Shown piece after piece: positions 1 through 50,501 of a stretch of DNA of 64,000 nt (positions are counted from its first letter, which is position 1; every line of letters starts with the position of its first letter). A program made the translations under genes and the position numbers. Source of the DNA: a virus (Duplodnaviria > Caudoviricetes); the IMG/VR virus record IMGVR_UViG_3300027212_000010, positions 3,097-67,096 of that record; one strand, 5' to 3'. The notes under the pieces were generated by a model. That model searched no databases. It was not told the origin of the DNA and saw nothing but the letters and a program-made list of their open reading frames with translations.

Positions 1-89
1 AGGGAGCGGGTTGGGTTGATTTGTCAGACCTACCCGATACAATAAAACTAGATATAGAAATCGCACTACTACAAGAAGGAGCACTATAA

Positions 90-239
90 ATGACTATCAC
101 TTACTCAATATGGGACGGCGCACAACTACTAGGCGTTGATTTCAAGGCAACTAGCGCAGATGAAATGAATAAGGTCGTAGCAGACCTAATGAAAGTTTCT
201 CGTAATGTCGTAGCACATATGCGAAAGGTTGAAATGTAA
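90..239 (+). CDS. hypothetical protein (49 aa)
   Basis: Read by hand: MTITYSIWDG...KVEM. RBS AGAAGGAG, downstream of promoter at 22-43, TAATG-coupled to next ORF. Confidence 0.7.
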   Translation: MTITYSIWDGAQLLGVDFKATSADEMNKVVADLMKVSRNVVAHMRKVEM

Positions 240-394
240 TGATACCTACAGGATTTGAGTTATCTATAACTAACGAATACGGATTTGAGTTTGATAGTTT
301 CTTAGGGGCTATCTACTTACCTTGGCACACTATTATTATCACCGCCCTAGCACTAATCGCTTATAAGATTTATAAGAGAAAGAAGAATAAGTAA
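239..394 (+). CDS. small membrane protein (51 aa)
   Basis: MIPTGFELS...hydrophobic stretch followed by KIYKRKKNK; TAATG overlaps at both ends. Confidence 0.65.
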   Translation: MIPTGFELSITNEYGFEFDSFLGAIYLPWHTIIITALALIAYKIYKRKKNK

Positions 395-507
395 TGACTA
401 CTAATCGCCTACTAACTACCGCCGTCCAATTACTACTAGCGGGCGTTACTATCCCGCTACTAATCGCCGTAATCAAAGATATAAAAAATGGGGGACTAAA
501 TGAATAA
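394..507 (+). CDS. small hydrophobic protein (37 aa)
   Basis: MTTNRLLTTAVQLLLAGVTIPLLIAVIKDIKNGGLNE; coupled to both neighbours. Confidence 0.55.
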   Translation: MTTNRLLTTAVQLLLAGVTIPLLIAVIKDIKNGGLNE

Positions 508-697
508 ATCACAATTAGAGAAAGACTTAGAAATAAAAGAAAGCTTTATAGATTTACTAAATGATATTTATCCTACTGTAAAAATCGGTTACTCTACATT
601 CACACCCGCCGAAATTCTAGAGTGTTGCGATCCCGTAGCGTTTGCGATTGGATTAGTGGAGCACGAGGATTATTTAGCAGAATTAGAAAATGAATAA
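500..697 (+). CDS. hypothetical protein
   Basis: ORF track; GGGGG RBS; part of operon. Confidence 0.7.
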   Translation: MNKSQLEKDLEIKESFIDLLNDIYPTVKIGYSTFTPAEILECCDPVAFAIGLVEHEDYLAELENE

Positions 698-736
698 ATA
701 AATAACGGCGTGTCGGCTTGACAAATCGGCAAGCCG

Positions 737-906
737 CCCGCATATGTATGGGGTTATCCACAGGGTTAAGAGAGTTATCCACAACCCCTGGAATTTGCAG
801 CACGACACGCCCGAGATCTTTGTGATGTTTATCACAACACCCACGCTCCACATATTGAGACAAACTCTTGCAAAATTAACACTTTGTCAGTCCTATCCGC
901 TATAAT
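737..906 (+). promoter_or_regulatory. composite module 1: palindrome, 2 DnaA boxes, CCTGGAATTT, CRP-type box, TGTCAG promoter
   Basis: CCCGCATATGTATGGG 737-752; TTATCCACA 754-762 and 775-783; CCTG 787; TGTGA-N6-TCACA 821-836; TGTCAG 885; TATAAT 901. Confidence 0.85.
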
Positions 907-937
907 GTCTACTATAACAACAACGAAAGGAAGTCAA

Positions 938-1069
938 ATGAATCTAGATGAATTCAAGGCTCATGTTACAGAAACACGCAAGCAATCTAAAATCGAGGCG
1001 ATGTCAGTCCTCTCTGCTACAATTACCAAATCAACAACAACGAAAGAAGGTGCCACTAATGGCAACTAA
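938..1069 (+). CDS. hypothetical protein
   Basis: Start moved to ATG 938 after CAACGAAAGGAAG RBS. Confidence 0.6.
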   Translation: MNLDEFKAHVTETRKQSKIEAMSVLSATITKSTTTKEGATNGN

Positions 1070-1265
1070 ACTATACACAATCGAAAACTTGCTAATCGGC
1101 AAGAATTACCGCTCAAACTCTCGCCACTTTTCAGGTGAGATTATTTCTGCAACTGCTCGCCCTGAAATTTGGTATGGCGAAAAAACTGAAGCGTTTTTAA
1201 TCGAAGTTAGAACTGGTGGCTTGCGAAATAAATTCGCAACAATCGCAGTAAAGGTTGGTGAATAA
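1059..1265 (+). CDS. hypothetical protein
   Basis: MATKLYTIENLL...; RBS GAAGG, downstream of promoter at 1002. Confidence 0.7.
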   Translation: MATKLYTIENLLIGKNYRSNSRHFSGEIISATARPEIWYGEKTEAFLIEVRTGGLRNKFATIAVKVGE

Positions 1266-1409
1266 ATGGGAATGGTAAAAGATAGCCTTGACGGGATTTT
1301 TCTTTGCGATAATTGCGACACTCTCGCAACTGTATGGCAAAAGGGAAACACAATTGAAATCACACAATGCAAATGCGTAACACTAGATTGGGAGAGCGAC
1401 AATGTATAA
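1266..1409 (+). CDS. small Cys-rich protein (47 aa)
   Basis: MGMVKDSLDGIFLCDNCDT...QCKCV; CxxC...CxC. Confidence 0.6.
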   Translation: MGMVKDSLDGIFLCDNCDTLATVWQKGNTIEITQCKCVTLDWESDNV

Positions 1410-1611
1410 AATAACTTTATCTTATGACGGAAATGCACCACACTGGCAACAAGACTACGCAAGCGAATTTGATGCGTGGAAAGATTTCTTTGCATTTACT
1501 GATTGGGGATTTGCTAACGAATTCTCAACTGTAAATATTTACAATTCAGAAATGAAATGCTTTACTAAACATTTTTATCGTGAGGAAAGAAAGGTCGTAA
1601 CTGTAAAATGA
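1402..1611 (+). CDS. hypothetical protein
   Basis: ORF track; overlapping operon. Confidence 0.7.
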   Translation: MYKITLSYDGNAPHWQQDYASEFDAWKDFFAFTDWGFANEFSTVNIYNSEMKCFTKHFYREERKVVTVK

Positions 1612-1802
1612 CAATGACACGCAAGCACTTCGAGGCAATTGCTGAAATCTTAAATTATAATTCAGGTAAAACTCACCCTGCTGTTTTTTCTAAAATGGTT
1701 TTAGACTTTGCGGAATTGTGTGCAAATGAAAATCCTAATTTCAATGTAACTAAATTCTATGAAGCGAGTAACTATGTCATTCCAAAACTCTCTACGAGAT
1801 AA
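1608..1802 (+). CDS. hypothetical protein
   Basis: ORF track; ATGA overlap. Confidence 0.7.
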   Translation: MTMTRKHFEAIAEILNYNSGKTHPAVFSKMVLDFAELCANENPNFNVTKFYEASNYVIPKLSTR

Positions 1803-1908
1803 AGTAAAACGCATTCAGGAATTGCGTCGCAGTAATGCGGCGCAACCTGTTCGCAATAAAAAAACTTACACACGCAAGATCAAACATAAAAATAAAAATG
1901 CAGAGTAA
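1774..1908 (+). CDS. small basic protein (44 aa)
   Basis: MSFQNSLRDKVKRIQELRRSNAAQPVRNKKTYTRKIKHK; the ELRRSNAA motif resembles small actinophage proteins as I recall them. Confidence 0.55.
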   Translation: MSFQNSLRDKVKRIQELRRSNAAQPVRNKKTYTRKIKHKNKNAE

Positions 1909-1927
1909 TGCATAAGTATGCAGCTGG

Positions 1928-2027
1928 CCCGCATATGTGCGGGGTCGGGCGTGTCGTTATGATGTGATCTAAATCACCCTGGAAATTTGCGTGTCGATTA
2001 GGAAATGTCAGTCTGTTCTGTTATAAT
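1928..2027 (+). promoter_or_regulatory. composite module 2 (palindrome, GGCGTGTCG, CRP-type box, promoter)
   Basis: CCCGCATATGTGCGGG 1928-1943; TGTGA-N6-TCACC 1963-1978; CCTG 1978; TGTCAG 2006; TATAAT 2022. Confidence 0.8.
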
Positions 2028-2057
2028 TCTCTTAACTACCAACGAAAGAGGTTCCTC

Positions 2058-2267
2058 ATGGAATTATTTACCGTCGCTTGCTTGAACTATGAAATTTGTG
2101 GCGCTCAAGAAACTTTTGATTCTGTTGAAGAGTATGAAATTTATGGAGATGACTGGACTTGTGGCGAATGCTACGATTCAGAAGAAATGGAATTCTATGA
2201 ACTAGGTGGCTGGGCGGATTCCGACGCCCTTGCTTCCGCTGGCCATGGCATGGATGAGGATTACTAA
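2058..2267 (+). CDS. acidic Cys-containing hypothetical protein
   Basis: RBS AAAGAGG; CxxxxxC...CxxC. Confidence 0.7.
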   Translation: MELFTVACLNYEICGAQETFDSVEEYEIYGDDWTCGECYDSEEMEFYELGGWADSDALASAGHGMDEDY

Positions 2268-2298
2268 TATGTCAGACGTCACCGCTATAATTACCCCT

Positions 2299-3018
2299 AT
2301 GAAATTAAAACGTTCTAATGACCGCAAGGTGGCTAACCTTGTCACAAAAAATGGCAAGCAAGCAGCAATTGCGAACACGTTCGGATTACCTGCAGGCAAG
2401 GCCTACTCGTGCCCTGGCGCCACTAGTATTTGCGAAAGCGTGTGCTATGCGGGAAAGCTTGAAAAGTTATTCCCTGGCGTAAAAACTAATCTGTTACACA
2501 ATTGGGAATTGTTACGCAATGCAGACAATGACACAATGGTGGCCCTATTAGAAGAAATGATTATTGATTTTGTTTCTGATTGTGATAAGAAGAGTGCTCC
2601 TAAGTTATTCCGTATCCACTGGGACGGCGATTTCTTTAATGATATTTATACATATGCCTGGAAGACTGTTATCATGAACCACCCCGATATTCAATTTTGG
2701 GTTTACACACGTGTAAAGTCTGCAGCGCTTATTCTTAAGGATGTTGTTAATCTTTCACTGTATTATTCTACCGATGATGAGAATAAGGAAATAGCATTCG
2801 ATTTAAAGAAGAATTCTAAGGTCCGCCTTGCTTACCTAGGCAAGACATTCGCGGCCACCGAAGACACGATGAAAGAGTTAACGGGCAAGCCTGGCGCTAA
2901 GTGTCCCGAGAATATGAAATCAATTCCGCTTATCTCTAGCAATGGGTCCGCCTGTGTTTCTTGTGGTCTCTGTGTCTACGGTAAAGCAGACATTCGATTT
3001 TCTGCGAGTAAAAAATAA
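2299..3018 (+). CDS. GP88-like protein (radical-SAM-like fold family)
   Basis: FGLPAG...SCPGAT..C...CYA and RIHWDGDFF motifs. Start inferred at 2299 (leaderless, 13 nt after TATAAT 2286). Confidence 0.7.
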   Translation: MKLKRSNDRKVANLVTKNGKQAAIANTFGLPAGKAYSCPGATSICESVCYAGKLEKLFPGVKTNLLHNWELLRNADNDTMVALLEEMIIDFVSDCDKKSAPKLFRIHWDGDFFNDIYTYAWKTVIMNHPDIQFWVYTRVKSAALILKDVVNLSLYYSTDDENKEIAFDLKKNSKVRLAYLGKTFAATEDTMKELTGKPGAKCPENMKSIPLISSNGSACVSCGLCVYGKADIRFSASKK

Positions 3019-3170
3019 TGCATGATGTTATTGGATCCCTGATCGGAATTATATTAATCATGTTTTTATTATCACCAATTATTTTAACGGTGTACATGTT
3101 GTGGAGCTCTAAAATAGATATCGATAACGACGGCCAGGATGATTTGCCTTATCGTTGGGAAAATAAATAG
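3018..3170 (+). CDS. small membrane protein (50 aa)
   Basis: MHDVIGSLIGIILIMFLLSPIILTVYML...DIDNDGQDD; one TM helix followed by a DxDxDG loop. Confidence 0.55.
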   Translation: MHDVIGSLIGIILIMFLLSPIILTVYMLWSSKIDIDNDGQDDLPYRWENK

Positions 3171-3184
3171 GCTGGTACCCTATC

Positions 3185-3345
3185 GGCGTGTTCCCTTGAC
3201 AAAAGGGGACCGCTGCCCCCATATGTGCGGGGTTATCCACAGGCTTACGGGAGTTATCCACAGACCCTGAAAATTTGTGAGAAATATCACAAAGCTCCGA
3301 CACGCCGAGAATGGATTAGGTAATGTCAGTGCCCTATGCTAAAAT
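3185..3345 (+). promoter_or_regulatory. composite module 3 (palindrome, 2 DnaA boxes, CRP-type box, promoter)
   Basis: Palindrome 3216-3231; TTATCCACA 3233 and 3254; CCTG 3266; TGTGA-N6-TCACA 3276-3291; TGTCAG 3324; TAAAAT 3340. Confidence 0.85.
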
Positions 3346-3374
3346 ACTCTTATCCAACCAACGAAAGGTAACAA

Positions 3375-3599
3375 ATGTCTAATCTAATGAAAGTTCCACA
3401 CACAGTTGAGTTCGAGGCAGTAATTGACTTGGACAAGATTCCCGCTAACTTACTACCTGCGCTAATTGCACTTGACACTTATTCAGTTACAAAGATGTGC
3501 AAAGAAGCAACACTACACGCACTTGGAATGTCAAATGTAATTCCACTTGCTAATGAAAATAACACTTGGGCTGAAGTAACAATTAAGGAAGGTAACTAA
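3375..3599 (+). CDS. hypothetical protein
   Basis: RBS CAACGAAAGG. Confidence 0.75.
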   Translation: MSNLMKVPHTVEFEAVIDLDKIPANLLPALIALDTYSVTKMCKEATLHALGMSNVIPLANENNTWAEVTIKEGN

Positions 3600-3601
3600 C
3601 A

Positions 3602-3871
3602 ATGGGAAATAACACTGCGCTAGATTTAGCAAGCGAGTTTGATTTAGAACAAGGTATTGCTTATCACTTACAAGGTAATCATTACCCGCCCGTTCCACTT
3701 TCTATGGTGAAGCCTTGCATCGATGCTATCGATGCTTGGTGGGAAGAAGATTCAGATAGACTAATTGAAATGCCTGAAGGCGTATCTTATCGTGGAGATA
3801 AGTTTGCACCTGCTCACGCAATAATTGACCAGCATCACCTACACGCTTGGCTGCAAGATACCGACTACTGA
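3602..3871 (+). CDS. hypothetical protein
   Basis: ORF track; RBS AAGGAAGG. Confidence 0.75.
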   Translation: MGNNTALDLASEFDLEQGIAYHLQGNHYPPVPLSMVKPCIDAIDAWWEEDSDRLIEMPEGVSYRGDKFAPAHAIIDQHHLHAWLQDTDY

Positions 3872-3886
3872 GATCAAAACCAGGCG

Positions 3887-3961
3887 TGTGAGATTACTCA
3901 CACGCTTGGCATCTCAAATAATAAGATTGGGGTAGTAAATGTCAGACCCCTTTGCTATAAT
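3887..3961 (+). promoter_or_regulatory. CRP-type box plus TGTCAG promoter
   Basis: TGTGAGATTACTCACA 3887-3902; TGTCAG 3940; TATAAT 3956. Confidence 0.8.
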
Positions 3962-3986
3962 AAGACCCTACAAGAAAGGAAGCAAA

Positions 3987-4169
3987 ATGACAGTAAATGG
4001 ATACACTTACAAGGTTGGCGATTTATTCACCACCCTAAAGTCAAAAAAGACAGGAGTAATCAAAGAGATTATTCCTAACGCATCTGGCTCGGTGCGAGTG
4101 CTACTAGAAATGCCAACAAAGGAAACTCGTTGGACAACAGTTAGCGACTCAGCCCTAACAGGCGCATAA
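3987..4169 (+). CDS. small SH3/KOW-like beta protein
   Basis: YKVGDLF...KTGVIKEI...VRVLLE; start after AAAGGAAG RBS. Confidence 0.6.
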   Translation: MTVNGYTYKVGDLFTTLKSKKTGVIKEIIPNASGSVRVLLEMPTKETRWTTVSDSALTGA

Positions 4170-4333
4170 AAAGGAGGCACACACCCTAACAGGGTGCTAA
4201 GCCACGAAACAGGGGCAGTTTGAGAGAGTGTTCTCGCCCAATGTCGTAAGTAAGAACTCTCTCCCTTCGGGGAAATGTCAGACCCCCCTGCTATACTATC
4301 CATAACAACCAACCAACGAAAGGTAATAAATAA

Positions 4334-4750
4334 ATGAGCAGACAAATCACAGTAAAGGTAGCAACAAGCAAAGTAATCAAGGCACTAGAAGGCACTCTTG
4401 CTAAACTAGAAAATGATTACAACACACAAACAGCCAAAGAAGCAAAGTTCGGCAAAGCGCAAGAAGCGTGGCGCAAGGAAATTGGTGCTTGGGCTATAAA
4501 GAACTTCGCAAAGGCAGAGAACCTTCGCACAAACTATCGTTCTTGGAACAACACCCTCAATGTTGATTTCGACATCATCACAAAGGAAGGAAACTTTCCT
4601 ACTGAACCTGAAAAGGACTTTGAGGTTATCCATCAGCACCAGTATCGTGAGATGAAAGAGGACATCACAAATGCTCTCACCATCTTAAAGATGACAGATG
4701 AGGAAACAGTAAATGCTTCTACAATGAAGCAGATTGCTAAGTATCTCTAA
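4334..4750 (+). CDS. hypothetical protein
   Basis: RBS CAACGAAAGG; promoter at 4276. Confidence 0.8.
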   Translation: MSRQITVKVATSKVIKALEGTLAKLENDYNTQTAKEAKFGKAQEAWRKEIGAWAIKNFAKAENLRTNYRSWNNTLNVDFDIITKEGNFPTEPEKDFEVIHQHQYREMKEDITNALTILKMTDEETVNASTMKQIAKYL

Positions 4751-4787
4751 GTAATTTGGGGGGCAGAACTAAAGTCCTGAACCCAAA

Positions 4788-4814
4788 CGACCTGAGTAAG
4801 TCGCCAAACTGCTC
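4788..4814 (+). ncRNA. candidate H-type pseudoknot, copy A
   Basis: CGAC/GTCG stem around loop CTGAGTAA; loop GAGTA can pair with TGCTC 4810-4814. Confidence 0.5.
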
Positions 4815-4849
4815 TCCCTTCGGGGACAACTACTAACAAAGGTAATACA

Positions 4850-5077
4850 ATGGCAAATCGTTTCAGAGTAGAAATCTACGACGCAAACAAAATGAATGAT
4901 GTAACTATTTATTCAGAGCAAGGTGTAGACAAAGAATACCTAACTGAATTAGTTTATTCTAATCTGCGAAAGTTTAGCGGAAAAGTAAATGCTTACGTTT
5001 TCGATAACGTAAAGAAAAAGAAAACAACAGCAATGTTTCTTGATGAGCACACAGTAAATAAATATAACGTAATTTAA
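4850..5077 (+). CDS. hypothetical protein
   Basis: RBS AAAGG. Confidence 0.75.
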   Translation: MANRFRVEIYDANKMNDVTIYSEQGVDKEYLTELVYSNLRKFSGKVNAYVFDNVKKKKTTAMFLDEHTVNKYNVI

Positions 5078-5122
5078 AACACGGCGCTGCAGTTGGGAAA
5101 TCCGATCTCAACTGCAAAGCTG

Positions 5123-5258
5123 CCCGCATAGGTGTGGGGTTATCCACAGGCTTACGACTGCTTGTGGATAACCCTGGAATTTTGTGAGATTACTCACACG
5201 GATCAAAACGGACAAATGACTAACTAATCTAGACAATGTCAGTGCCACCTGTTATAAT
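5123..5258 (+). promoter_or_regulatory. composite module 4 (palindrome, inverted DnaA box pair, CRP-type box, promoter)
   Basis: Palindrome 5123-5138; TTATCCACA 5140; TGTGGATAA 5163; CCTG 5173; TGTGA-N6-TCACA 5183-5198; TGTCAG 5237; TATAAT 5253. Confidence 0.85.
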
Positions 5259-5291
5259 TGCATCTACAACCAATCGAAAGGAAATAAATCC

Positions 5292-6296
5292 ATGGCTCAT
5301 AATCTAGAAATGGAAAACGGCGAAGTTGCTTTTGCTCTTCGTGGTGCACCTGCTTGGCATAATCTTGCCAATCGTATCTTCACACAAGATGAGGAAGTTA
5401 CAACCGCAACAATGCTTGAAGAAGCAAAGTTAGCGAATTGGAATGTTCGCTTGTCTCCACTAACTGACCACATCTCAGAATCTTGGAATGATGTATCTAA
5501 TGCATCTCTCGTGATTCGTGATAACCCATTCAACAAGGAAATCGATGTCCTTGCAACTGTCGGCAAGCGTTACAAGCCTGTGCAGAATGAAGAATTGTTT
5601 GCATTCGCTGATGCAATTCATGATGCCAATGCTGATTGCCGTTGGGAATCCGCTGGCTCTCTTAAGAAGGGCAAAGTTGTGTTTGGAACTGTTGATATTC
5701 CCCGCACAATGGTTCTTGACCCACAAGGCGCTAACGATGAAACTAAACTATATCTAATTGTTTGGACATCACACGATGGTTCTGTTGCTGTTCAAGCAGC
5801 CGTCACACCTGTTCGTGTTGTTTGCCAAAACACACTAAACCTTGCAATGAAGAATGCTAAGCAATCTTTCAAGATTCGCCACACGCAATCTGTTGAAGGT
5901 CGCATTCAAGTTGCTCGTGAAACTCTTGGGCTTGCTCTTGGTTATTTCGATGAATTCGAAGTTCAAGCAAAAGCACTTTACTCACAAGCAATTACCGATG
6001 CTGAATTCTCTAAGTTGATTCAGACAATCTATCCTAAGCCAGAAAAAGATGCTAAGGGCGCAATCAAAAAGTGGGAGAACAAAGTTGTTCTGCTTGATGA
6101 CCTTTATCATAACTCACCAACTAACGCTACAATCAAGGGAACAAAGTGGGGTGCGTTCAATGCACTAACTGAGCGCCTTGATTATTATCGTTCAGGTCGT
6201 GGCAATGGCGAAACACTTATGGCGGGTGCATCAGGGTTTGACCCAGTTCTAACCGCAGAAAAAAATAAGTTGTATCGCATGGTTGCAACTTTCTAA
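5292..6296 (+). CDS. DUF932 / TIGR03299 phage-plasmid protein
   Basis: MAH......AWH.L; Y.P.QN...F.F; SHDGS; PVRVVC.NTL; F..RHT motifs. Confidence 0.85.
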   Translation: MAHNLEMENGEVAFALRGAPAWHNLANRIFTQDEEVTTATMLEEAKLANWNVRLSPLTDHISESWNDVSNASLVIRDNPFNKEIDVLATVGKRYKPVQNEELFAFADAIHDANADCRWESAGSLKKGKVVFGTVDIPRTMVLDPQGANDETKLYLIVWTSHDGSVAVQAAVTPVRVVCQNTLNLAMKNAKQSFKIRHTQSVEGRIQVARETLGLALGYFDEFEVQAKALYSQAITDAEFSKLIQTIYPKPEKDAKGAIKKWENKVVLLDDLYHNSPTNATIKGTKWGAFNALTERLDYYRSGRGNGETLMAGASGFDPVLTAEKNKLYRMVATF

Positions 6297-6310
6297 AAAA
6301 AACTAAATAA

Positions 6311-6338: not shown

Positions 6339-6351
6339 AATATTTTTTTTT

Positions 6352-6425
6352 GATCTCATAGCTCAATTGGTTAGAGCGCTACCCTGTCACGGTAGAGGTT
6401 GCGAGTTCAAGTCTCGTTGGGATCG
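6352..6425 (+). tRNA. tRNA-Asp(GTC)
   Basis: Acceptor GATCTCA/TGGGATC, anticodon loop CTGTCAC, T-loop TTCAAGT, discriminator G; no CCA encoded. Confidence 0.92.
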
Positions 6426-6446
6426 CTTGACAAATGCCGAGAGATG

Positions 6447-6537
6447 CCCCCATATGTGCGGGTGTGATTCTTATCATACGAGAGGACTAAGAAACCCCTG
6501 GAATTCTATTGTATATGTCAGTGGGCCCTGGTACAAT
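6447..6537 (+). promoter_or_regulatory. composite module 5
   Basis: Palindrome 6447-6462; TGTGA-N6-TCATA 6463-6478; CCTG 6497; TGTCAG 6516; TACAAT 6532. Confidence 0.8.
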
Positions 6538-6543
6538 TCTCTC

Positions 6544-7206
6544 ATGACCAACGAACTAGTATCAAGCAAGTATACATTTGTCTGCGACCCAGATGAATGT
6601 GATTGTTTAATCGAATTAACATCATCTGATGGATTTGGATTCCCATCAGGTGTGACAGAACTCACATGTCCGTGTGGCCGTAAGACAACCTTATTGTCAG
6701 TGGAGCATGCTACAATTGCACCTTCAACCCAAACGAAAGAGGAAAAAATGGAAGAGACAACAACACCTGCAGTAACAGTTCCCGATACATATAACTCTAA
6801 TCTATTGGTTACCTACAAAGTAATCCGTGGCTATTCAGATGCAGAATATGCAACTGATAAAGTTGCATCTCTTGAATGGGACTTGCACAATGGACGCCAA
6901 TCTCAAAAAGTTGCAAATATGCTACAGGGCAAAATTGACACAGTCAAAGATATTATCACTGAAGCATATGGCGATTCAGAAGACCAAGAAACACTTCGTT
7001 CTATTGCTGAAGCGCTTGATATTCCATTAACTCGAACAGTTGAGTGGACTGCATCTATCGAGGTTAGCGGAACTATTGAATTAGATTTGCTTTCTGATTA
7101 TGATACTGACATCGAGTCAGAGATTACAGATACTCTTTATGTTGATGCACAGAATGGCAATGTTGAAATCGTTGACCAAGAAGTATGTCATGTTAGGGAA
7201 TGCTAA
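6544..7206 (+). CDS. hypothetical protein, Cys-rich N-terminus; probable second in-frame start at 6749
   Basis: Leaderless ATG 12 nt after TACAAT 6532. Internal promoter 6695-6716 and RBS AACGAAAGAGG precede MEETT. Confidence 0.7.
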   Translation: MTNELVSSKYTFVCDPDECDCLIELTSSDGFGFPSGVTELTCPCGRKTTLLSVEHATIAPSTQTKEEKMEETTTPAVTVPDTYNSNLLVTYKVIRGYSDAEYATDKVASLEWDLHNGRQSQKVANMLQGKIDTVKDIITEAYGDSEDQETLRSIAEALDIPLTRTVEWTASIEVSGTIELDLLSDYDTDIESEITDTLYVDAQNGNVEIVDQEVCHVREC

Positions 7207-7418: not shown

Positions 7419-7420
7419 AA

Positions 7421-11391: not shown

Positions 11392-11960
11392 CAATAGACA
11401 TATATGAATAGATGAATGTCTGGTTAGATAGATAAACATATCTAGCCCAAATTATCCACAGGGTTATCCACATCCTGTGGATTTTTTGTATGTGTGGGCA
11501 TGGGGGCAGCTTTTTTCATTTACGACACATGATCTCAAATCCCTGAAATTTAAAACATGTGGGCCAAATTTCTCGTTTACGAGGCCTTGACAAATACGCC
11601 TGAAAATGCTACAGAATAATGTCTATATGATTAATTATACATATAGAATGTCGACAAATCTGTAGAGAATATGGCAGAATAAGCCAAAATCCCTTGCATA
11701 TTCTATTGACAAATATGGATCAATATGCTGCACATTTCGGCTATTGACATTACGATTAAGATGGGATATGCTCAATTACATATGTATGTTTAACTATATA
11801 TATCTATAGTATATGATATGTTATCTAGAGTATAAATTCTCCACAATACTCCACTTTGCTCCACTATATAAGCCTTCTAAGGGCTATTAGAGAGGAGATA
11901 AATGGGAGGGGGATATAGGAGTTAGGTGCCTAAATGATCTATTTTCCAGAGCTATCTGGC
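11392..11960. other. candidate replication origin / arm boundary
   Basis: ORF-free gap between convergent arms. TTATCCACA at 11452 and 11464; TTCTCCACA at 11837, the first of three CTCCAC copies at 10-bp period; AT-rich core. Confidence 0.5.
11454..11487 (+). terminator. intrinsic terminator built from DnaA boxes
   Basis: ATCCACAGG/CCTGTGGAT stem, loop GTTATCCACAT, then T-tract. Confidence 0.65.
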
Positions 11961-12436: not shown

Positions 12437-12518
12437 ATATTCATTATAGTATATATGACAGGTACTGTCAATGCCTCTCTACCGCCGAACTTTTTCACTA
12501 ATTGCGGTCTATATGGTA

Positions 12519-25966: not shown

Positions 25967-26184
25967 ATATGCACAAAACCACTGTACTAGATAATTATAC
26001 CTTGTGTGCAGTGGCCGTGTCAATGATTGATTTGTGATATTTTTACGACATTAATCTTTTTAATTTCGTCATCTATGTTAAATATATCATGAATGTATTC
26101 GTTTGCATCTTCGGTGTTAAAGGCCTCTACTTCTACCTCTATATCCAATTTAATACGATATTTATTCATAATACAATTATAGCA

Positions 26185-39140: not shown

Positions 39141-39467
39141 CTAAGACTTATTGGCAATTTTTAAAAGAATTAGGTATCCTATTAGATCATCAATATCATT
39201 GTCTCCAGGGAAAGCCTGATCATTCTGAATTCTATTTAACTTGTCATCAATACGGACTCTAATTTGTTCCTTTGAATCCGCCTTTGAAAATATACGAATT
39301 GGATCTAGCGCTGAGTTCCCATACGACACATTCTTTTTAATTAGCATCTCTGCCATCTCTAAACACTCAACAATAATTTTTTGTCCTGATGGTGCATCTG
39401 TTGCAATTAATTGAAGGTCGGTTATCCACGCCTGGTACCCGCCCGATTTATTTGGGTAGTCACTCAT
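39141..39467 (-). CDS. DUF1599-like nucleotide-modification-associated protein
   Basis: KKNVSYGNS; RIDDKLNRI; DLIGYLIL. Confidence 0.65.
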   Translation of the reverse strand: MSDYPNKSGGYQAWITDLQLIATDAPSGQKIIVECLEMAEMLIKKNVSYGNSALDPIRIFSKADSKEQIRVRIDDKLNRIQNDQAFPGDNDIDDLIGYLILLKIANKS

Positions 39468-39610
39468 TTTTTTCTTAGCAGTCCAAACTCTTGTAAATAT
39501 CTCTGTATAGTCATAGCAGAGACACCGCACTCTTTACCTATTTCTGTAACTGTTTTCTTTTGTACTATGTACCTTCTGTAAAGCCAATCTTTACTCTGAT
39601 AAAGTTTCAT
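39464..39610 (-). CDS. small HTH DNA-binding protein (48 aa)
   Basis: MKLYQSKDWL...TVTEIGKECGVSAMTIQRYL; read by hand. Confidence 0.7.
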   Translation of the reverse strand: MKLYQSKDWLYRRYIVQKKTVTEIGKECGVSAMTIQRYLQEFGLLRKK

Positions 39611-43278: not shown

Positions 43279-44266
43279 TGTCCTTTATAAGACCATCAAC
43301 AACTTTAGGGTTGCCTCTTAGATAAGCTACGGCTTTAGCACGTCCCTGAAGTCTTTCTCCATTAACAGTATACCAAGCTCCACCTTTTTCCACTGCCCCG
43401 ACCATCTCTGCAACGTCAAGAGTTTCTCCTACTGAATCAACGCCTAAAGATTCTCCTTGATAGTAGAAGTCGTATTGTCCTGAAAGGTTAGGGGGGCCGA
43501 GCTTGTTGTAATCAATAATCCAATTGACTGGCCTGCCAACTCTTTGTTCAATAATTTTGTCACCAACTTTAATGCCTGCCTTAATCGCATTTGCTTCAGC
43601 CTCTGAGGACCAAAGCTTAATAACTGTTGAAGAAAAGAATTTGACTGCCATTCCCCCTGTTGGGATATGGGAAGCATGCATAGATCCAAATTGATTTCTT
43701 TGCTGTGAGATGAGAACCAGTAATGTGTTTTTATTTGCATAGTTTAACATTTTGACTGCGTGAGTCATATCCTTTGCTTCGGCGCCGATTTGCTTTGTGT
43801 CTTGCAAATCCTTCATTTCATTTCCATCTTTTTCAAAATAAATTGCTGGCAATAATGCTGAAATAGAATCTACAACAATAATATCTACGCCCGCATCCAT
43901 TAATTTTGTAGCAACATCCACCATGTCATTGACGGTTTTTGCTGGAGAGTAAATAAGAGAAGAGGAATCTACTCCCAACTGTTCAGCCCATGATTGATCA
44001 TAAGATGCTTCTGCATCAATCCAAGCGCATGTCTTTCCTTCTTTTTGTGCAAGAGCAATCATCTGTAAACAAAATGAAGATTTGCCTGCAGACTTATTTC
44101 CCCAAACAAGGGCCTGTCTGCCGTAGCCTAATCCACCTCTTAATGCCATGTTAAGGCCAATACTTGGTGTCTTTTGTTTTTCAACCTTTACATCTTGTGC
44201 TGCTTTTACTCTTGCTCTTGTTTTTGGATCTAATCCTGCTAGGATGTCATCAATCGCTATAGTCAT
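43262..44266 (-). CDS. recA: RecA-like recombinase
   Basis: WGNKSAGKS; WIDAE; VVDSISAL; TGGMAVKF; GAWY. Confidence 0.93.
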   Translation of the reverse strand: MTIAIDDILAGLDPKTRARVKAAQDVKVEKQKTPSIGLNMALRGGLGYGRQALVWGNKSAGKSSFCLQMIALAQKEGKTCAWIDAEASYDQSWAEQLGVDSSSLIYSPAKTVNDMVDVATKLMDAGVDIIVVDSISALLPAIYFEKDGNEMKDLQDTKQIGAEAKDMTHAVKMLNYANKNTLLVLISQQRNQFGSMHASHIPTGGMAVKFFSSTVIKLWSSEAEANAIKAGIKVGDKIIEQRVGRPVNWIIDYNKLGPPNLSGQYDFYYQGESLGVDSVGETLDVAEMVGAVEKGGAWYTVNGERLQGRAKAVAYLRGNPKVVDGLIKDIDAKS

Positions 44267-44297
44267 TTTTTTCTCTCTCTTTGATACAATTATATCA

Positions 44298-44687
44298 TTA
44301 AAATAAATTGCCGTGAAGTGCTGGTCGGTCCTTATTTATTTCTATTTTATTAAATAAAACTTCATCTAAACTATGAGTTACAAAGCCAGCATTTCGCATA
44401 GATGCATACAAATCAAGAGTTCTAATTATAATGTCAACCATTTCTTCAACAATCTGCTCAGACCCTTTATTTTTTCTAATCGCTTCAAGGACTTCAGTTA
44501 CTTCAGAATGAACCAATGCAAGCTTATTGCCAAAGACATCAAAGTTTTTTGGGTTATTCCAAAAACCTTTTTCAATTGCCGTTTCGTGAAGTAGTGCTGA
44601 TAAAACATCTAGCCCATAGTCTGTTACAAGCTCTACGTCATTACTCGAAGTCTGTAATGAGCTGGTCGTTATTTGTCCCTGATTCAT
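44298..44687 (-). CDS. MazG-like NTP pyrophosphohydrolase
   Basis: LALVHSEVTEVLEA; EEMVDIIIR.LD. Confidence 0.8.
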   Translation of the reverse strand: MNQGQITTSSLQTSSNDVELVTDYGLDVLSALLHETAIEKGFWNNPKNFDVFGNKLALVHSEVTEVLEAIRKNKGSEQIVEEMVDIIIRTLDLYASMRNAGFVTHSLDEVLFNKIEINKDRPALHGNLF

Positions 44688-44874
44688 CTTTTCCTTTTAA
44701 CTTAAACTTAAATGATTGATTCTCTGAGTCGTAATCAACTTGAAGCTCTTTATCAATTGTTGCTGCGTTAATAAATAAATCGCTAGGTATTGTAATTTCA
44801 TTTTGCATTTCTAATATTGCAACTAATATCTTTGATACATTTAATGATGCAAAAATATCTTGTTCTTGTGTCAT
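44641..44874 (-). CDS. hypothetical protein, paralogue 1 of 3
   Basis: LNVSKILVAIL...YDSENQSFKFKL. Confidence 0.7.
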   Translation of the reverse strand: MTQEQDIFASLNVSKILVAILEMQNEITIPSDLFINAATIDKELQVDYDSENQSFKFKLKGKDESGTNNDQLITDFE

Positions 44875-45305
44875 TCTTCCTCCTTAAGGAATTTTATGCC
44901 ATAGACATTCCATGGCCTTCTTATTGAAAAGAAGCCTACAGTTTCATTATTATTCTGTGTATGAAGACCTTCTTCATAACTTACAATTCTCATTGATACC
45001 TTGTCTGTCTTGGCGTTGTAATAAACATTAACGTGTCCGCCAATATCTTTGATGTAGTCATGAAAGTCTGGATCATATGGGTTTACAGATGTGTCATTAG
45101 GTGGCATGTCGTATTTGTTTAAATGAATTAAATCTTTTCTATCAAAAACAAACTCGCCAAGATTCTCAAATAAAAGAGTTAAAAGAACTGAAGAGTTTAA
45201 CCTATTAAACATTTCAGTAACCTGACTATTTCTTCTATCAGTTTCTTCTGCAGTTAATGTCCTGCCATCATCGTGATAGTCAGTAGGCGTCCAATTTTTT
45301 TCCAT
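44871..45305 (-). CDS. hypothetical protein, paralogue 2 of 3
   Basis: LNSSVLLTLLF...YNAKTDKVSMRI. Confidence 0.7.
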   Translation of the reverse strand: MEKNWTPTDYHDDGRTLTAEETDRRNSQVTEMFNRLNSSVLLTLLFENLGEFVFDRKDLIHLNKYDMPPNDTSVNPYDPDFHDYIKDIGGHVNVYYNAKTDKVSMRIVSYEEGLHTQNNNETVGFFSIRRPWNVYGIKFLKEEE

Positions 45306-45316
45306 ATCATCGTCTC

Positions 45317-45679
45317 CTAGGAATGTGCATAGTCATTCCATCTTGATCTTAGGCAAACGTATCCAATGCTGTTGCCAACTCCCACAAGTGCCTCTGCTTC
45401 TTCTCGTGACATAAGATTAAATGTAAACACCTTTTCTTGAGAGTCATAATCAATCTGTGCGTATCCACCAGACTCTTTTATGTAGTCCATATAGGTGTCC
45501 ATGTAGGTATCTATGGCATTAAAGTCTTGTAAGTCCTCTGGCTTGTGATAATTTGTTATGTTATCAAGCTCTTCTTTTGTAATAGAAACTGGGCCGACTG
45601 ATTTTAAAACTGCTGTCAGCAAATTGGAAGCATTAAATCTTTTTACTAGCACCTCTAATGATGGCGGTTCTTCTGTCAT
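45317..45679 (-). CDS. hypothetical protein, paralogue 3 of 3
   Basis: FNASNLLTAVL...YDSQEKVFTFNL. Confidence 0.7.
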   Translation of the reverse strand: MTEEPPSLEVLVKRFNASNLLTAVLKSVGPVSITKEELDNITNYHKPEDLQDFNAIDTYMDTYMDYIKESGGYAQIDYDSQEKVFTFNLMSREEAEALVGVGNSIGYVCLRSRWNDYAHS

Positions 45680-48600
45680 TTTATTTCCTTTATATTCAAG
45701 GTTCCATCATCCAATTTGGCTAATGTAACTTTACATTTCATTCCCTCACGCATCTTAGCAAGAGTCATTTTGTACATTGCTGGGAAAGCAATTGCTCTAG
45801 TTAAAACTTTATTCTTATCTGATAGAACTATGTGGCTCATCTGTTTTCCTGCCTTAGTTGTATATGGGGTAAAGTTTACCACAACATACTCGTCTTCTTC
45901 AAGGTCGTACGACTTAGCATATAGATAGTCGACAAATAAATCATTTGATTTTGGATCTATATCGCTTACCTTGACATACCTTGCAATACGATTATCTCCA
46001 ACAAGGATAAAGTACATTTGATTTGTTTCAATTTGAGTCTGCTCTGTATGGAATAGCCCTACTGTTCCAGTCTCATCTACCAGTTCAACTCTGGCCCAAC
46101 CATTACCTCGTTTAATTGATTTAACCATTCCAAACATAACAAATGATCCTAGGTCGTCAAAGTCTTCAATAGGTCTAGCCTGTGCTTTAATCCTAGGTGG
46201 TATCCCTTCTAAATTAAAACTTGGAATGCTTAGGTATTCGTAGTAATTGTCTTTTTCATTTCCCTGCCTTTTGTTATCAGGGAACGCAGCACCGCCGATG
46301 GCGTTAAGAGCAGCAACAGCACGGCTATTAATGCCAGAACCTTTCTTTGATGCCTTCTCAATAAAATCAGCATAATCACTGTAAGGTCTTCTTTCTATGA
46401 TCTTGTTTGCAATACTATCTGAAATAAACTTTACTTCAGCTAGCCCAAATCTAATAGAATCTTTTTGTAATGAAAAGTATAGCCCTGATTCATTAATGTG
46501 TGGGAGCAATACCTTAAGGCCTAATCTTTTTGCCTCAATTAAATACTCTGTTCTGGCGTCTTTGTCATTTTCATTTTTAAGAATTGAAAACATGAACTCA
46601 AGCGGATAATAAAACTTAAGCCAAGCAGTATAGTAACTAAGCATAGAGTAAGCAACAGCATGGGAGCGGTTAAAAGAATAACCAGCATGCGCTTCAAAAT
46701 CGTGCCACAACGCTTCGGCTTTTTTCTTAGTAATGTGTTTTGAAGCCCCAGTAACAAACTTATCTTTGAACTGGTCAAATTCTTTTGCATCTTTTTTCTT
46801 TCCAATAATCTTGCGGACCTTATCAGCCTCTGCCCAAGTCATACCGCCAAGGTGTACACATGCCTGCATAACCTGCTCTTGATATATAATAACACCATAT
46901 GTATTCTCGGTAAAAGGCTTCATGATTGTGTGCATGTAGTCTACGGCTTCATTGCCATTCTTACGATTAATGTATGCCGCTCCTACTGTATTCATTGCAC
47001 CAGGTCGTACGAGGGCATTAGAGGCAGCAAGATCTTCAAATTTATCTATGCCCATTTTAATCAAAAGGTTTGTGTAGGGTGTTGCTTCTGCTTGGAACAC
47101 ACCCTTTGTATAACCATCATTCAGCATCTTATACACATCGGCGTCATCCATAGCCATTTCAGAAAGATTTATTGTATTGCCATGTCTGTCCTTAATTGAC
47201 TTAAGAGTGTCAGAGATCACAGATAAAGTCTTAAGACCTAGCGCATCTAGCTTAATAAGACCTATATCTGCAACCGTATCCATATCGTATGCGACGACTG
47301 GAATTCTTCCTGATACCTTATCTTGGGAGTCTTCACGAGATTCTACTGGTGCAAACTTTCTTAAATCATCTTTTGCAACCACTACTCCAGCGGCGTGTAC
47401 TCCAACAGATCTGATTCTTCCACGTAGTCTATCGGCAAGCCAAACAACTTCTGGGTATCTCAATCTAAATTCTTTTGTATTTGGCGAATCAATAAAGTCT
47501 TCAAATGTATCTACCGATTTTAATGCACGGTTAACTTCTTGAAGAGGAACCATAAATACACGAGCAGCATCTCTAACGACACCCTTGTCCTTGAAGTAAG
47601 TGTATGTAGAAATAGAAGCAACGTGCTTAAACTTCTTTTTTAGATAGTCTTTAACTTCTTTTCTGCGACGGTCTTCAAAGTCAGTATCAATATCTGGAAA
47701 GTCATTACGCTCTTCATTAATAAATCTAAAGAACAAAAGGTTATATTTAATTGGATCTACATCTGTAATTCCAAGTGCGTAGCAAACAAGTGAGCCTGCT
47801 GCAGAACCACGGCCTGGCCCAACACGAATATCATTTTCTTTTGCCCAATTAATCATATCTCCAACAACAAGGAAGTATGAGGCAAAGTTTTTCTTAGCAA
47901 TAATGCTAAGCTCTTCGTTAAGCCTGTCAATATAGGCAGGGTCTGAAGCCTTCTGAAGGCTCTCTAGGCCCTTTTCAGCCAACTCCCTTAGTCTTTCATC
48001 GGCATCAGTCTTTGGCACTGGCAGCAGGTCTAAGCCCTGATAGAAGTCATATTCTCCTACCTTGTCTGCAATCTCCATTGTATTCTCATAGATGTCTGTT
48101 CGATTAATTCCAGCCTTATTAAAGTCTGCCTCTATCTCAGAACGGTTTTGAATAAATAAATTCATATCTTGAAATGAAATTCTGCGGTCAGGATAAAGAT
48201 AATTAAATCTATCTAACATGTCTTTCATGTTTCTAGACATATCAAAGTCAGCATCTTTATCAAACTTAGGAGATGTTGATAGAATTAATAACGCTTCCTC
48301 TAGGATTCTATCTTCTTCTTTAGCAAAGTGAGCATCTCCTGTTGCAACCGCCTTAATTTCAAGCTTGTCTGCTAATTCTAAAAGGGCGGAGTTGATCTCC
48401 ACAGGGTTATGTGATTGCACTTCCACGTAAAAATCTTGTCCGAAAGTTTGTTTAAAGTCTTTGAGAAGAAGTTCTGCTTCCTCCATGTTACCTTTATCGA
48501 TAGCCTTACTAATGAGTCCATTAAGACATCCGCTGAGAACGATAATACCTTCGCTATAATCATTTAAAATCTCCCTATCAATACGTGGCTTATGATAAAA

Positions 48601-48945
48601 GCCCTCGTTCCAAGCAAGCTCCTGTAGAGTATTTATATTCTCCAACCCCTTTTTATTTTTCGCTAGCAAAATAATATGGTTATAGGCTTGAATAGACTTG
48701 TCTGTTTTAGAAGACCTGTCAAACCTATCCGTTGGAGAAATGTACGCCTCAACACCAAGAATCGGCTTAATGCCAATTTCCTTTGCGGCAATTTGCATAT
48801 CTCTGTGTGAAGAGAGAGTGCCATGGTCTGTAATTGCAATCGCAGTTTGTCCAGCATCCAGCGCTGCTTGGCATAATTCTTTAGGTGAATTTAGTCCATC
48901 CATTAACGAATAATAGGAGTGAACGTGTAGGTGTGCAAAGCTCAT
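45676..48945 (-). CDS. dnaE: DNA polymerase III alpha subunit
   Basis: PHP HLHVHS.YS.LDG; GPGRGSAAGS; PDIDTDF; HAAGVV; KLDALGL; YSFN.SHA. Confidence 0.97.
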   Translation of the reverse strand: MSFAHLHVHSYYSLMDGLNSPKELCQAALDAGQTAIAITDHGTLSSHRDMQIAAKEIGIKPILGVEAYISPTDRFDRSSKTDKSIQAYNHIILLAKNKKGLENINTLQELAWNEGFYHKPRIDREILNDYSEGIIVLSGCLNGLISKAIDKGNMEEAELLLKDFKQTFGQDFYVEVQSHNPVEINSALLELADKLEIKAVATGDAHFAKEEDRILEEALLILSTSPKFDKDADFDMSRNMKDMLDRFNYLYPDRRISFQDMNLFIQNRSEIEADFNKAGINRTDIYENTMEIADKVGEYDFYQGLDLLPVPKTDADERLRELAEKGLESLQKASDPAYIDRLNEELSIIAKKNFASYFLVVGDMINWAKENDIRVGPGRGSAAGSLVCYALGITDVDPIKYNLLFFRFINEERNDFPDIDTDFEDRRRKEVKDYLKKKFKHVASISTYTYFKDKGVVRDAARVFMVPLQEVNRALKSVDTFEDFIDSPNTKEFRLRYPEVVWLADRLRGRIRSVGVHAAGVVVAKDDLRKFAPVESREDSQDKVSGRIPVVAYDMDTVADIGLIKLDALGLKTLSVISDTLKSIKDRHGNTINLSEMAMDDADVYKMLNDGYTKGVFQAEATPYTNLLIKMGIDKFEDLAASNALVRPGAMNTVGAAYINRKNGNEAVDYMHTIMKPFTENTYGVIIYQEQVMQACVHLGGMTWAEADKVRKIIGKKKDAKEFDQFKDKFVTGASKHITKKKAEALWHDFEAHAGYSFNRSHAVAYSMLSYYTAWLKFYYPLEFMFSILKNENDKDARTEYLIEAKRLGLKVLLPHINESGLYFSLQKDSIRFGLAEVKFISDSIANKIIERRPYSDYADFIEKASKKGSGINSRAVAALNAIGGAAFPDNKRQGNEKDNYYEYLSIPSFNLEGIPPRIKAQARPIEDFDDLGSFVMFGMVKSIKRGNGWARVELVDETGTVGLFHTEQTQIETNQMYFILVGDNRIARYVKVSDIDPKSNDLFVDYLYAKSYDLEEDEYVVVNFTPYTTKAGKQMSHIVLSDKNKVLTRAIAFPAMYKMTLAKMREGMKCKVTLAKLDDGTLNIKEIK

Positions 48946-49136
48946 GCTCTTGCCGTTTTCTCAAGGTAGTGAATTACATCGCAATCTATATCACAAAGAT
49001 CAAGAGATATAATATCTGCCACAATATCTGATCTAATTGAGTTCATTACTGCTCTGGTCAATTGCTGATCAAGATCTAATTCAAGATTAACATACTTAAC
49101 CCAAGGTTTGCGTAATGTGTATGGTCCAATTTTCAT
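48942..49136 (-). CDS. hypothetical protein
   Basis: ORF track. Confidence 0.6.
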   Translation of the reverse strand: MKIGPYTLRKPWVKYVNLELDLDQQLTRAVMNSIRSDIVADIISLDLCDIDCDVIHYLEKTARA

Positions 49137-49354
49137 TCTAACTCCTTCTCAATAGCTTCAATGGTTAAGCAAGGTAAGGCATCTCCACACTCGCACATAT
49201 CAGGACCGCAACAATCATTTTCGCCGCATCCCATATATCTTGGCTTATGTAATTCCACTACTGCACGAAGGGCGTGTACTGATTGAGCATCACCATTGTA
49301 AAGTGCAACATCTAATCTACGATTGATTTCAATTAGCAATTCATCGTGTGTCAT
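49133..49354 (-). CDS. Cys-rich hypothetical protein
   Basis: ALRAVVELH.P...C...C. Confidence 0.65.
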   Translation of the reverse strand: MTHDELLIEINRRLDVALYNGDAQSVHALRAVVELHKPRYMGCGENDCCGPDMCECGDALPCLTIEAIEKELE

Positions 49355-49493
49355 TTTAGATCCTTAGATACTAGATACTTGTCCATGAGCTGATCAAAGA
49401 CTTCTTTACATTTCTCATCACTCCAGCCATTTTCCATGCCAGTAGTTGATACCGCTTCTCTTAGTTTAATCTTATACCAGAATAGATCATTCA

Positions 49494-49700
49494 TTAATAT
49501 CCGCCTAAGCATTCATTTCTAGTATGATAAAGTCTGATCTTGGTCATTGTTTTTTTATTTGGTGCATATAGCTCTTCACCGCAACATGCTGATTTTAAAT
49601 ACCATTCTTTTGCAAAGAAATCATATAGCATTCCTTTATAATTTCTATATTTGTGCGCCACAAAAACATCAAAAGGATCTGGAATTTCGTAAGTGGTCAT
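49494..49700 (-). CDS. hypothetical protein (leaderless)
   Basis: TTGACT-17-TAGAAT with ATG at +12. Confidence 0.7.
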   Translation of the reverse strand: MTTYEIPDPFDVFVAHKYRNYKGMLYDFFAKEWYLKSACCGEELYAPNKKTMTKIRLYHTRNECLGGY

Positions 49701-49723
49701 AATGGTATTCTACTAAATAGAAT

Positions 49724-49747
49724 AGGGGCAGTCAATAGACTGCCCCT
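49724..49747 (-). terminator. perfect 10-bp hairpin after SSB, overlapping next -35
   Basis: AGGGGCAGTC-AATA-GACTGCCCCT. Confidence 0.7.
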
Positions 49748-49759
49748 AGACATATTAAT

Positions 49760-50431
49760 TTACCAGTCTACGCTACTGCCAGATGCAGAAGCTTCTTCGG
49801 TGTGCCCGCCTTCACCAGCAAAGAATGCTTCTTGCTCTGTGTATGGCATATCACGAACTGCGGTTGTTTCCAAGTCGTAAAGTTCAAGTGATGAAGAATC
49901 AAATGGAGCCTCATCCTTTGCGAGTGGAATAATTGTATAACTTGTATCGGTCTTTGTGCCTGAGCGCTTAATGCGCCACATTAGGTTTGTAATTGAACCC
50001 ATTTCTCCAGCGTATTCAATTAGTGTTGGTGTGATTGTCTTTCCGCTTGAACCCTGAGAAAGAATTGCCACGTATGGATCTTCTTTTCCATCGTCAATAA
50101 GAACATTGGTGTAAAGTCGTGAACGACCTTTCCATCCCGCCTTGTAGTCCTTTCGGTGTTGTTCGCAACCATAGCACTTGCCTTGGTCTTCCATAGAACA
50201 TAAAGCCTTGCGGCGGTAGTCTTTTGGATTTGTGTGCTCTACGGCAATAAAGCCTAAGCCATTCTTTTCGTTGTATGTTGGTGAATCTGGATCAAGCTCT
50301 TGAAGGAAACGAACCTTCACGCTTTCTGCATCTTCAAGTTTTGCCCAACGAGCTTTCACTCCGTCTCCGCCTGAGTGTTGCGGTGCATCCATAACCTTAT
50401 TCAGGTCTTTTAGTCCTTTAACGATACCCAT
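49760..50431 (-). CDS. ssDNA-binding protein (gp32-like)
   Basis: VRFL.E; H...C...CYGC; TSYTIIP; acidic tail ending in W; located in the replication cluster. Confidence 0.65.
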   Translation of the reverse strand: MGIVKGLKDLNKVMDAPQHSGGDGVKARWAKLEDAESVKVRFLQELDPDSPTYNEKNGLGFIAVEHTNPKDYRRKALCSMEDQGKCYGCEQHRKDYKAGWKGRSRLYTNVLIDDGKEDPYVAILSQGSSGKTITPTLIEYAGEMGSITNLMWRIKRSGTKTDTSYTIIPLAKDEAPFDSSSLELYDLETTAVRDMPYTEQEAFFAGEGGHTEEASASGSSVDW

Positions 50432-50479
50432 TGTATCTCCTTATTTTATAGTTGATGGTATAGATCCATCTGTCTTACT

Positions 50480-50501
50480 AGTATAGCATTACCAACTGAC
50501 A
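50480..50501 (-). promoter_or_regulatory. 16th TGTCAG-N10-TATACT promoter, upstream of SSB
   Basis: Minus strand reads TTGAAT-A-TGTCAG-TTGGTAATGC-TATACT. Confidence 0.75.

Follow-up and report, generated by a model that had tools for sequence, protein, structure and literature searches.

A one-strand array of probable PafBC-type promoters in an uncultured lake phage of actinobacteria

The DNA stretch analysed here, referred to as the window, comprises 64,000 nucleotides and spans positions 3097 to 67096 of a viral contig with 67,096 bases (IMG/VR record IMGVR_UViG_3300027212_000010). It has a G+C content of 38% and comes from an uncultured lake phage of actinobacteria; among cultured relatives, the Stanwilliamsviridae Streptomyces phages possess the nearest DnaE protein (58% identity). 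A block of small genes is encoded on the + strand, followed by a long - strand arm, which contains genes for primase, DnaB, SSB, DnaE and WhiB as well as tRNA and tail genes. The block begins approximately 620-950 nt upstream of the window at a divergent junction, where two genes coding for proteins of ~299 amino acids point the opposite way from a TTGACA-16-TATACT promoter, and it ends at the junction with the long arm at approximately 11.4-12.2 kb. The genes of this ~10-kb block are probably early or host-takeover genes. Here, we describe a short element, TGTCAG and TAnnnT separated by exactly 10 nt (TGTCAG-N10-TAnnnT), which recurs throughout the block and once upstream of the SSB gene, and we propose that these sites are promoters of the class that is read in actinobacteria by the host activator PafBC.

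On its own, the hexamer TGTCAG shows no enrichment in the window (34 copies versus ~30 expected). The complete element has 17 matches on the two strands of the window versus 0.59 expected, and the maximum in 100 shuffled sequences was 4. Fifteen of these matches are located on the + strand between positions 22 and 9875. This agrees with a preliminary description of the same DNA, which had counted 17 TGTCAG hexamers on this strand within 1-10 kb, 15 of them followed by TAnnnT after exactly 10 nt, with an A or T as seventh base in all 15 and a TG at -15/-14 in 10. One match on the - strand lies 48 nt 5' of an open reading frame (ORF), whose earlier assignment as the SSB gene could be confirmed by a PHROGs search (phrog_9721, E 2.7e-47), and a copy at 47208, antisense within the DnaE gene, is probably a chance occurrence. 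Two extra + strand copies are found upstream of the window at contig positions 2478 and 2753. The contig total is therefore 17 copies across ~10.5 kb and one copy on the other arm, giving 18 candidate promoters, and 17 of the 19 + strand TGTCAG hexamers in the block of the contig are placed 10 nt from a TAnnnT.

A position matrix of the 18 copies reads (A)(W)A-TGTCAG-W-S-S-n-n-n-c-T-G-c-TAtAAT, in which the TGTCAG box at -28..-23 is invariant (18/18), with a G at -14 in 16 and a T at -15 in 12 copies. There is no -35 signal 17 nt 5' of the -10 element, as had been noted before for most sites, and a -35-like hexamer (TAGACA) is present only at the site at 5237. Each copy directly precedes an ORF and most of these ORFs start after a leader of 20-35 nt, which ends in a GAAAGG-type ribosome site. 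The leaderless ATG described previously at 6544 begins 6 nt past the -10 element, and we found a second one at 2299, 7 nt past the -10, which is the start of a GP88-family gene; with this start, the ORF of the gene loses 31 codons relative to the longest reading frame. Both ATGs lack a ribosome site and are kept in related phages while the intervening 6-7 nt vary. Because of these two conserved leaderless starts, transcription is predicted to begin 6-7 nt after the -10 element. Two other readings of the hexamer were tried and rejected. If TGTCAG were the -35 (CTGACA) of divergent promoters on the opposite strand, a TAnnnT complement would be required at a place where it is absent, and ATGTCA as -35 would leave too short a spacer (11 nt). 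The candidate promoters of the window are listed in Table 1.

Table 1. Small-gene block and predicted promoters of the PafBC type in the window
Feature	Start	End	Strand	Remark
Small-gene block served by the TGTCAG promoters	1	11391	+	extends upstream beyond the window start
PafBC-type promoter, TGTCAG-N10-TACAAT	22	43	+	next ORF start near 90
PafBC-type promoter, TGTCAG-N10-TATAAT	885	906	+	followed by AACGAAAGGA ribosome site and ATG
PafBC-type promoter, extended -10	1002	1023	+	
PafBC-type promoter, extended -10	2006	2027	+	
PafBC-type promoter of the GP88-family gene	2270	2291	+	leaderless ATG at 2299
PafBC-type promoter, extended -10	3324	3345	+	
PafBC-type promoter, extended -10	3940	3961	+	
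PafBC-type promoter, extended -10	4276	4297	+	
PafBC-type promoter of the DUF932 gene (5292-6296)	5237	5258	+	only one also with -35-like TAGACA; footprint over 56 distinct orthologous sequences
PafBC-type promoter	6516	6537	+	leaderless ATG at 6544
PafBC-type promoter, extended -10	6695	6716	+	
PafBC-type promoter	8430	8451	+	
PafBC-type promoter	9154	9175	+	
PafBC-type promoter, extended -10	9660	9681	+	
PafBC-type promoter, extended -10	9854	9875	+	final one of the block
PafBC-type promoter 5' of the SSB gene (49760-50431)	50480	50501	-	near-identical copies in relatives G003 and G004

In mycobacteria, the RecA-independent DNA-damage promoter RecA-NDp (recA P1) has the consensus tTGTCRgtg-8nt-TAnnnT (PMC5656591, citing Gamulin 2004). 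The form of the PafBC motif derived from chromatin immunoprecipitation sequencing (ChIP-seq) is tGTCgg(N10)tA(N3)T, with the 5' part at -23 to -28 and without a -35 (PMC8635444). PafBC is a heterodimer of WYL-domain proteins, which wedges between the DNA and region 4 of SigA, and the GTC triplet of the motif, which is almost invariant across actinobacteria, is contacted by PafB residues R46 and R50 (PMC8635444). RecA-NDp promoters are not recognised by the holoenzyme alone, and the mechanism was named 'sigma adaptation' and likened to T4 MotA/AsiA by the authors of the structure (PMC8635444). The level of PafBC is constant (PMC5656591) and the binding of single-stranded DNA (ssDNA) acts as the on-switch (PMC8635444, PMC11804915), whereby PafBC joins only an RNA polymerase that is already on such a promoter, and only with ssDNA (PMC11804915).

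The phage element shares with the actinobacterial PafBC/RecA-NDp promoters (PMC8635444, PMC5656591, PMC11804915) a 22-nt architecture, consisting of a (T)GTC(R)G box at -28..-23, exactly 10 nt and TAnnnT, as well as the absence of a -35, a non-palindromic box with an invariant GTC core and one served gene, SSB, that functions in DNA metabolism. It differs from these in that 17 copies form an array in ~10.5 kb in front of small genes of unassigned function rather than repair genes, that the box is always TGTCAG, and that the -10 is near-consensus, mostly TG-extended and embedded in AT-rich flanks. In addition, CRP-type palindromes and DnaA boxes are located upstream in several modules, and the activator is not encoded by the phage. 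Judged from its sequence, the element probably represents real promoters of the PafBC-dependent (RecA-NDp) class, to which we assign a probability of roughly 65%. The suggestion in the preliminary description that the box replaces the -35 in an activator- or sigma-dependent class, with a likeness to MotA that is also drawn in PMC8635444, is in agreement with this assignment, but the view that the element matches no described one has to be given up. The promoter class itself is already described and the new aspect would be its use by a phage in arrays. Our full-text literature searches, whose coverage did not extend to a 2025 paper on PafBC and mycobacteriophage resistance, found no phage use of PafBC-type promoters.

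The element is conserved in related phages. With the DUF932 protein of the block as query, 263 related stretches were found in the viral collection, and 80 loci with 91-100% identity in the DUF932 protein were kept. Each of these loci has 8-18 motif copies on the gene strand, with the opposite strand nearly free of them, and the spacing is strict, with 1088 pairs at N10 versus 16 at N8, 9 at N9 and 8 at N11, and 3 pairs at N10 on the other strand. The gene strands of the relatives contain 563 distinct extended -10 sites, 314 of which have TGTCAG at -28..-23, and the recurrent box variants AGTCAA, TGTCGG, AGTCGA and TGTCAT all retain the GTC. When 56 distinct orthologous sequences 5' of the DUF932 gene are compared, the footprint shows little or no variation in AATGTCAG, in the ribosome site and in a TGTGA/TCACA palindrome further 5'; the extended -10 is kept but for one varying position, and most spacer positions after TGTCAG vary. 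In five related records (115-120 kb, rated 92-100% complete), the copies are confined to a single ~10-kb block on one strand, and two of the five also possess the SSB-gene copy with nearly the same sequence. The promoters are also found, with other -10 flavours, in a more distant relative of 50-69% amino-acid identity, a contig that was assigned to a genome bin from Lake Mendota. No enrichment of TGTCRG-N10-TAnnnT was seen in the cultured actinophages L5, TM4, phiC31, BillNye and Braelyn. The same promoters are present on contigs of ~38% G+C in Beijerinckiaceae and Acidimicrobiaceae bins, namely L194 (G007:C304), L195 (G006:C102) and L196 (G007:C756), which are probably phage DNA mis-binned into bacterial genome bins. 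The early genes that L194 shares with the phage studied here are 50-69% identical, and no match was reported for L195 and L196.

As candidate factors for reading the box, the preliminary description had named WhiB, two helix-turn-helix (HTH) genes and a host factor. Only the last of these fits; nothing points to WhiB or to the two HTH genes, and the PHROGs search gave no named function for the latter (39141-39530 and 53680-54165). The contig and a further four or five related records, of which four have a completeness rating of 100%, gave no match to the domains WYL, HTH_PafC, MotCF, AsiA or Sigma70_r2; MotCF and AsiA were searched in five records and Sigma70_r2 in six, five of them at least 92% complete. 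The lone HTH_PafC match, found in one relative, scored 12.5 bits and lies under any threshold. As none of these domains was found in the searched records, the factor is probably the PafBC protein of the host. The same searches argue against a phage sigma factor and, together with a box that is not a MotA box, against a T4-type MotA/AsiA class proper.

A scan of actinobacterial genomes for the motif, which had been proposed in the preliminary description, gave a strong enrichment in some of them. Compared with the reversed motif as control, we counted 73 versus 0 sites in a genome of 8.5 Mb, 56 versus 2 in 7.9 Mb, 43 versus 1 in 9.2 Mb and 29 versus 2 in 2.5 Mb, and most motif sites in these enriched genomes read TGTCAGTGG...TAnnnT. 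Of 201 genomes sampled from the phylum, 172 have WYL genes, typically as two adjacent genes or as one fused gene. The tallies on motif enrichment, blastn and WYL include the genomes G009, G026, G056, G090, G096, G128, G155, G181, G326 and G344, which are flagged as unpublished and on which no specific claim depends. No such flag applies to G006, G007, G013, G028, G032, G052, G062 and G198. An adjacent pafB-pafC pair is also encoded in G028, a genome of 1.5 Mb with ~39% G+C in the pieces read. One protein of this pair has a WYL and a WCX domain, and the other HTH_PafC (73 bits, cut-off 32), WYL and WCX. Among solved structures, the nearest is the M. smegmatis PafB chain in the 7p5x complex of polymerase with PafBC; the residue corresponding to R50 is retained, and the position of R46 is aligned to a Q beside an R. 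TGTCGC-N10-TATTAT is found upstream of recA in G028, and TGTCAG-N10-TAnnnT upstream of dprA, AddB/UvrD-like and DUF763 genes. The presence of the gene pair together with these boxes indicates that actinobacteria with small, low-GC genomes and such a PafBC regulon exist, and G028 resembles the type of host that the phage would need.

The way in which PafBC reads its promoters comes from the literature; the observations made here are the sequence, spacing, strand, position in front of genes and conservation of the element, and the absence of the searched protein domains from the phage. Based on these, we propose that the host housekeeping RNA polymerase with SigA would bind the TAnnnT -10, mostly in the form TGnTATAAT, and that ssDNA-loaded host PafBC would slot between sigma region 4 and the DNA. 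The helix-turn-helix of PafB would then contact the GTC core of the box in lieu of a -35 contact, and the predicted transcripts, starting 6-7 nt past the -10, would either have no leader or have one of 20-35 nt that includes a GAAAGG ribosome site. The small-gene block and the SSB gene might thereby be coupled to the ssDNA or DNA-damage alarm of the host. The near-consensus extended -10 probably permits a basal, PafBC-independent start, and the ssDNA signal could arise from the infection itself or from earlier damage to the host. The action of host PafBC on these sites, the source of the ssDNA signal and the timing of block expression are what we infer from the DNA. We regard it as an even chance that this lytic phage entrusts the switch of its whole host-takeover block to a host ssDNA sensor, with phage DNA, host DNA breakdown or prior UV damage as the trigger.

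So far, a DNA-damage response of the host is the only known role of PafBC and sigma adaptation. If the proposed PafBC dependence is correct, the phage would be the first virus known to exploit sigma adaptation and would have converted a DNA-damage alarm into a phage timer, and the ssDNA trigger would have a natural reason to matter in infection. Should a widespread family of lake phages use PafBC, the activator would become a point of phage-host conflict. Each genome would then supply ~18 natural promoter variants, with hundreds across all relatives, from which the requirements for the -26 box and the spacer could be dissected. The element would also provide a marker of early genes in uncultured actinophages that needs only their sequence, and a hint to the host, which must possess pafBC.

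Several points weigh against PafBC dependence. An extended -10 can work without an activator, and PafBC dependence is not implied by the sequence. The served genes, SSB apart, are not DNA-repair genes, and an ssDNA-dependent activator is hard to reconcile with activity at the very start of infection. On the host side, no WYL match was obtained for 29 of the 201 sampled genomes, a group with many small members (1.3-1.8 Mb). In one of them, G013, a LexA box and a -35/-10 promoter are all that precedes recA, and the PafBC explanation would fail for a host of this kind. Furthermore, none of three host searches gave a usable candidate. The phage peroxiredoxin-like gene matched Burkholderiales and short contigs that are probably mis-binned phage DNA, blastn with the 15-35 kb part of the window as query returned only tRNA-sized matches in 401 genomes of the phylum, and no single best candidate emerged from a tetranucleotide comparison with 20 small genomes. 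G021, G042, G057, G072, G081, G095 and G109 are, like G013, among the genomes without a WYL match. Genome streamlining may have lost PafBC in some lineages, limiting which lake actinobacteria could be hosts.

Other explanations of the element have to be weighed against these points. A phage-made protein without a WYL domain, either a small protein or WhiB, might read TGTCAG and recruit or re-aim the host RNA polymerase, as in the T4 MotA/AsiA-like middle class. The phage encodes many unassigned small ORFs and a WhiB protein, the consensus -35/-10 promoters elsewhere could express such a factor first, and WYL genes are missing from some small actinobacterial genomes. We nevertheless consider a phage-made reader unlikely, as it would be a striking coincidence if it had the box, spacing and GTC core of an existing host system, and the domain searches yielded neither MotA, AsiA and sigma domains nor WYL and PafC-HTH domains in the records covered. 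No WhiB-type protein is known to recognise such a box. Equally improbable, in our view, is that the sites are constitutive extended -10 promoters, whose 18 TGTCAG boxes, multiplied by replication, soak up PafBC and blunt the DNA-damage or defence response of the host. The G at -14 in nearly all sites and the mostly near-consensus -10 would suit constitutive promoters, and a 2025 paper, as cited in PMC12848934, ties PafBC to phage resistance in mycobacteria. The boxes, though, always stand in promoter register and never occur alone; moreover, PafBC joins only promoter-bound polymerase with ssDNA (PMC11804915), and titration is therefore inseparable from transcription.

The spacer between the box and the -10 is a classic location for a repressor, and TGTCAG might be the operator of a phage or host repressor that closes the block later in infection. 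The operator sites of mycobacteriophage L5 are likewise asymmetric and in one orientation. We judge this to be very unlikely, because the box has no dyad symmetry, its fixed 10-nt register with the -10 suggests contact with RNA polymerase, and the exact match to an activator-dependent class is the simpler explanation. The repeat could also be an RNA-level or DNA-structure signal in long read-through transcripts, such as a processing site or hairpin, and not a promoter at all. Short complementary flanks surround TGTCAG in a few copies, but the flanks of a given copy pair no better than swapped flanks (permutation p = 0.09). As TGnTATAAT is a textbook -10 and the leaderless ATGs are found at the expected start site, we give this last explanation hardly any credence.

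PafBC-type promoters in the phage would resemble T4 middle promoters, which depend on a MotA box and AsiA ('sigma appropriation'), in that the -35 is replaced by a box whose short distance to a normal -10 is fixed, a reader protein links the DNA with sigma region 4, and the host housekeeping polymerase is re-aimed by a phage. The T4 MotA box has the consensus ~TGCTT and is centred at -30, and it thus differs from TGTCAG. The T4 factors are also made by the phage and remodel sigma, whereas the reader proposed here is likely a host protein that does not unfold sigma region 4 (PMC8635444). No MotA or AsiA domain was found in the five records searched.

Large lytic phages are known to contain promoter arrays in their host-takeover blocks, as in the early regions of SPO1, T5 and T4. 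The array described here is similar, with many closely spaced promoters that each serve one to few tiny genes in a one-strand block, but the promoters of SPO1, T5 and T4 are of the ordinary -35/-10 type and are used by the unaided host polymerase. Candidates of this ordinary type are encoded elsewhere in the window: the long arm contains several near-consensus -35/-10 sequences, for example at 12443-12471 (- strand) and 25995-26023 (- strand), which match TTGACA-17/18-TATAAT at 12 of 12 positions. These perfect candidates suggest that there are two promoter classes, of which the TGTCAG class is confined to the small-gene block and the SSB gene, and that the host polymerase also reads the ordinary -35/-10 consensus.

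Palindromes of the CRP/GlxR type (TGTGA-N6-TCACA) are located 50-85 nt 5' of several TGTCAG promoters, among others at 821-836, 3276-3291, 3887-3904 and 5183-5200. At the DUF932 promoter, both palindrome half-sites are invariant in the 56 distinct orthologous sequences. Due to this conservation, a second host factor may act on these promoters. The small-gene block also contains a tRNA-Asp gene at 6352-6426, directly 5' of the promoter at 6516, and five further tRNA genes are present on the opposite arm. Repeated intergenic modules contain perfect copies of the DnaA box (TTATCCACA; 754-768, 3233-3247, 5140-5174 and 11452-11489), which frequently occur in pairs or inverted, and some of the DnaA boxes of the block modules also form terminator-like hairpins. 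Another part of this modular intergenic scaffold is the hairpin repeat GCCCGCATATGTGCGGGG, which is present in five copies (736-754, 1927-1945, 3215-3233, 5122-5140 and 6446-6464), three of them preceded on the 5' side by a CTTGACAAA motif.

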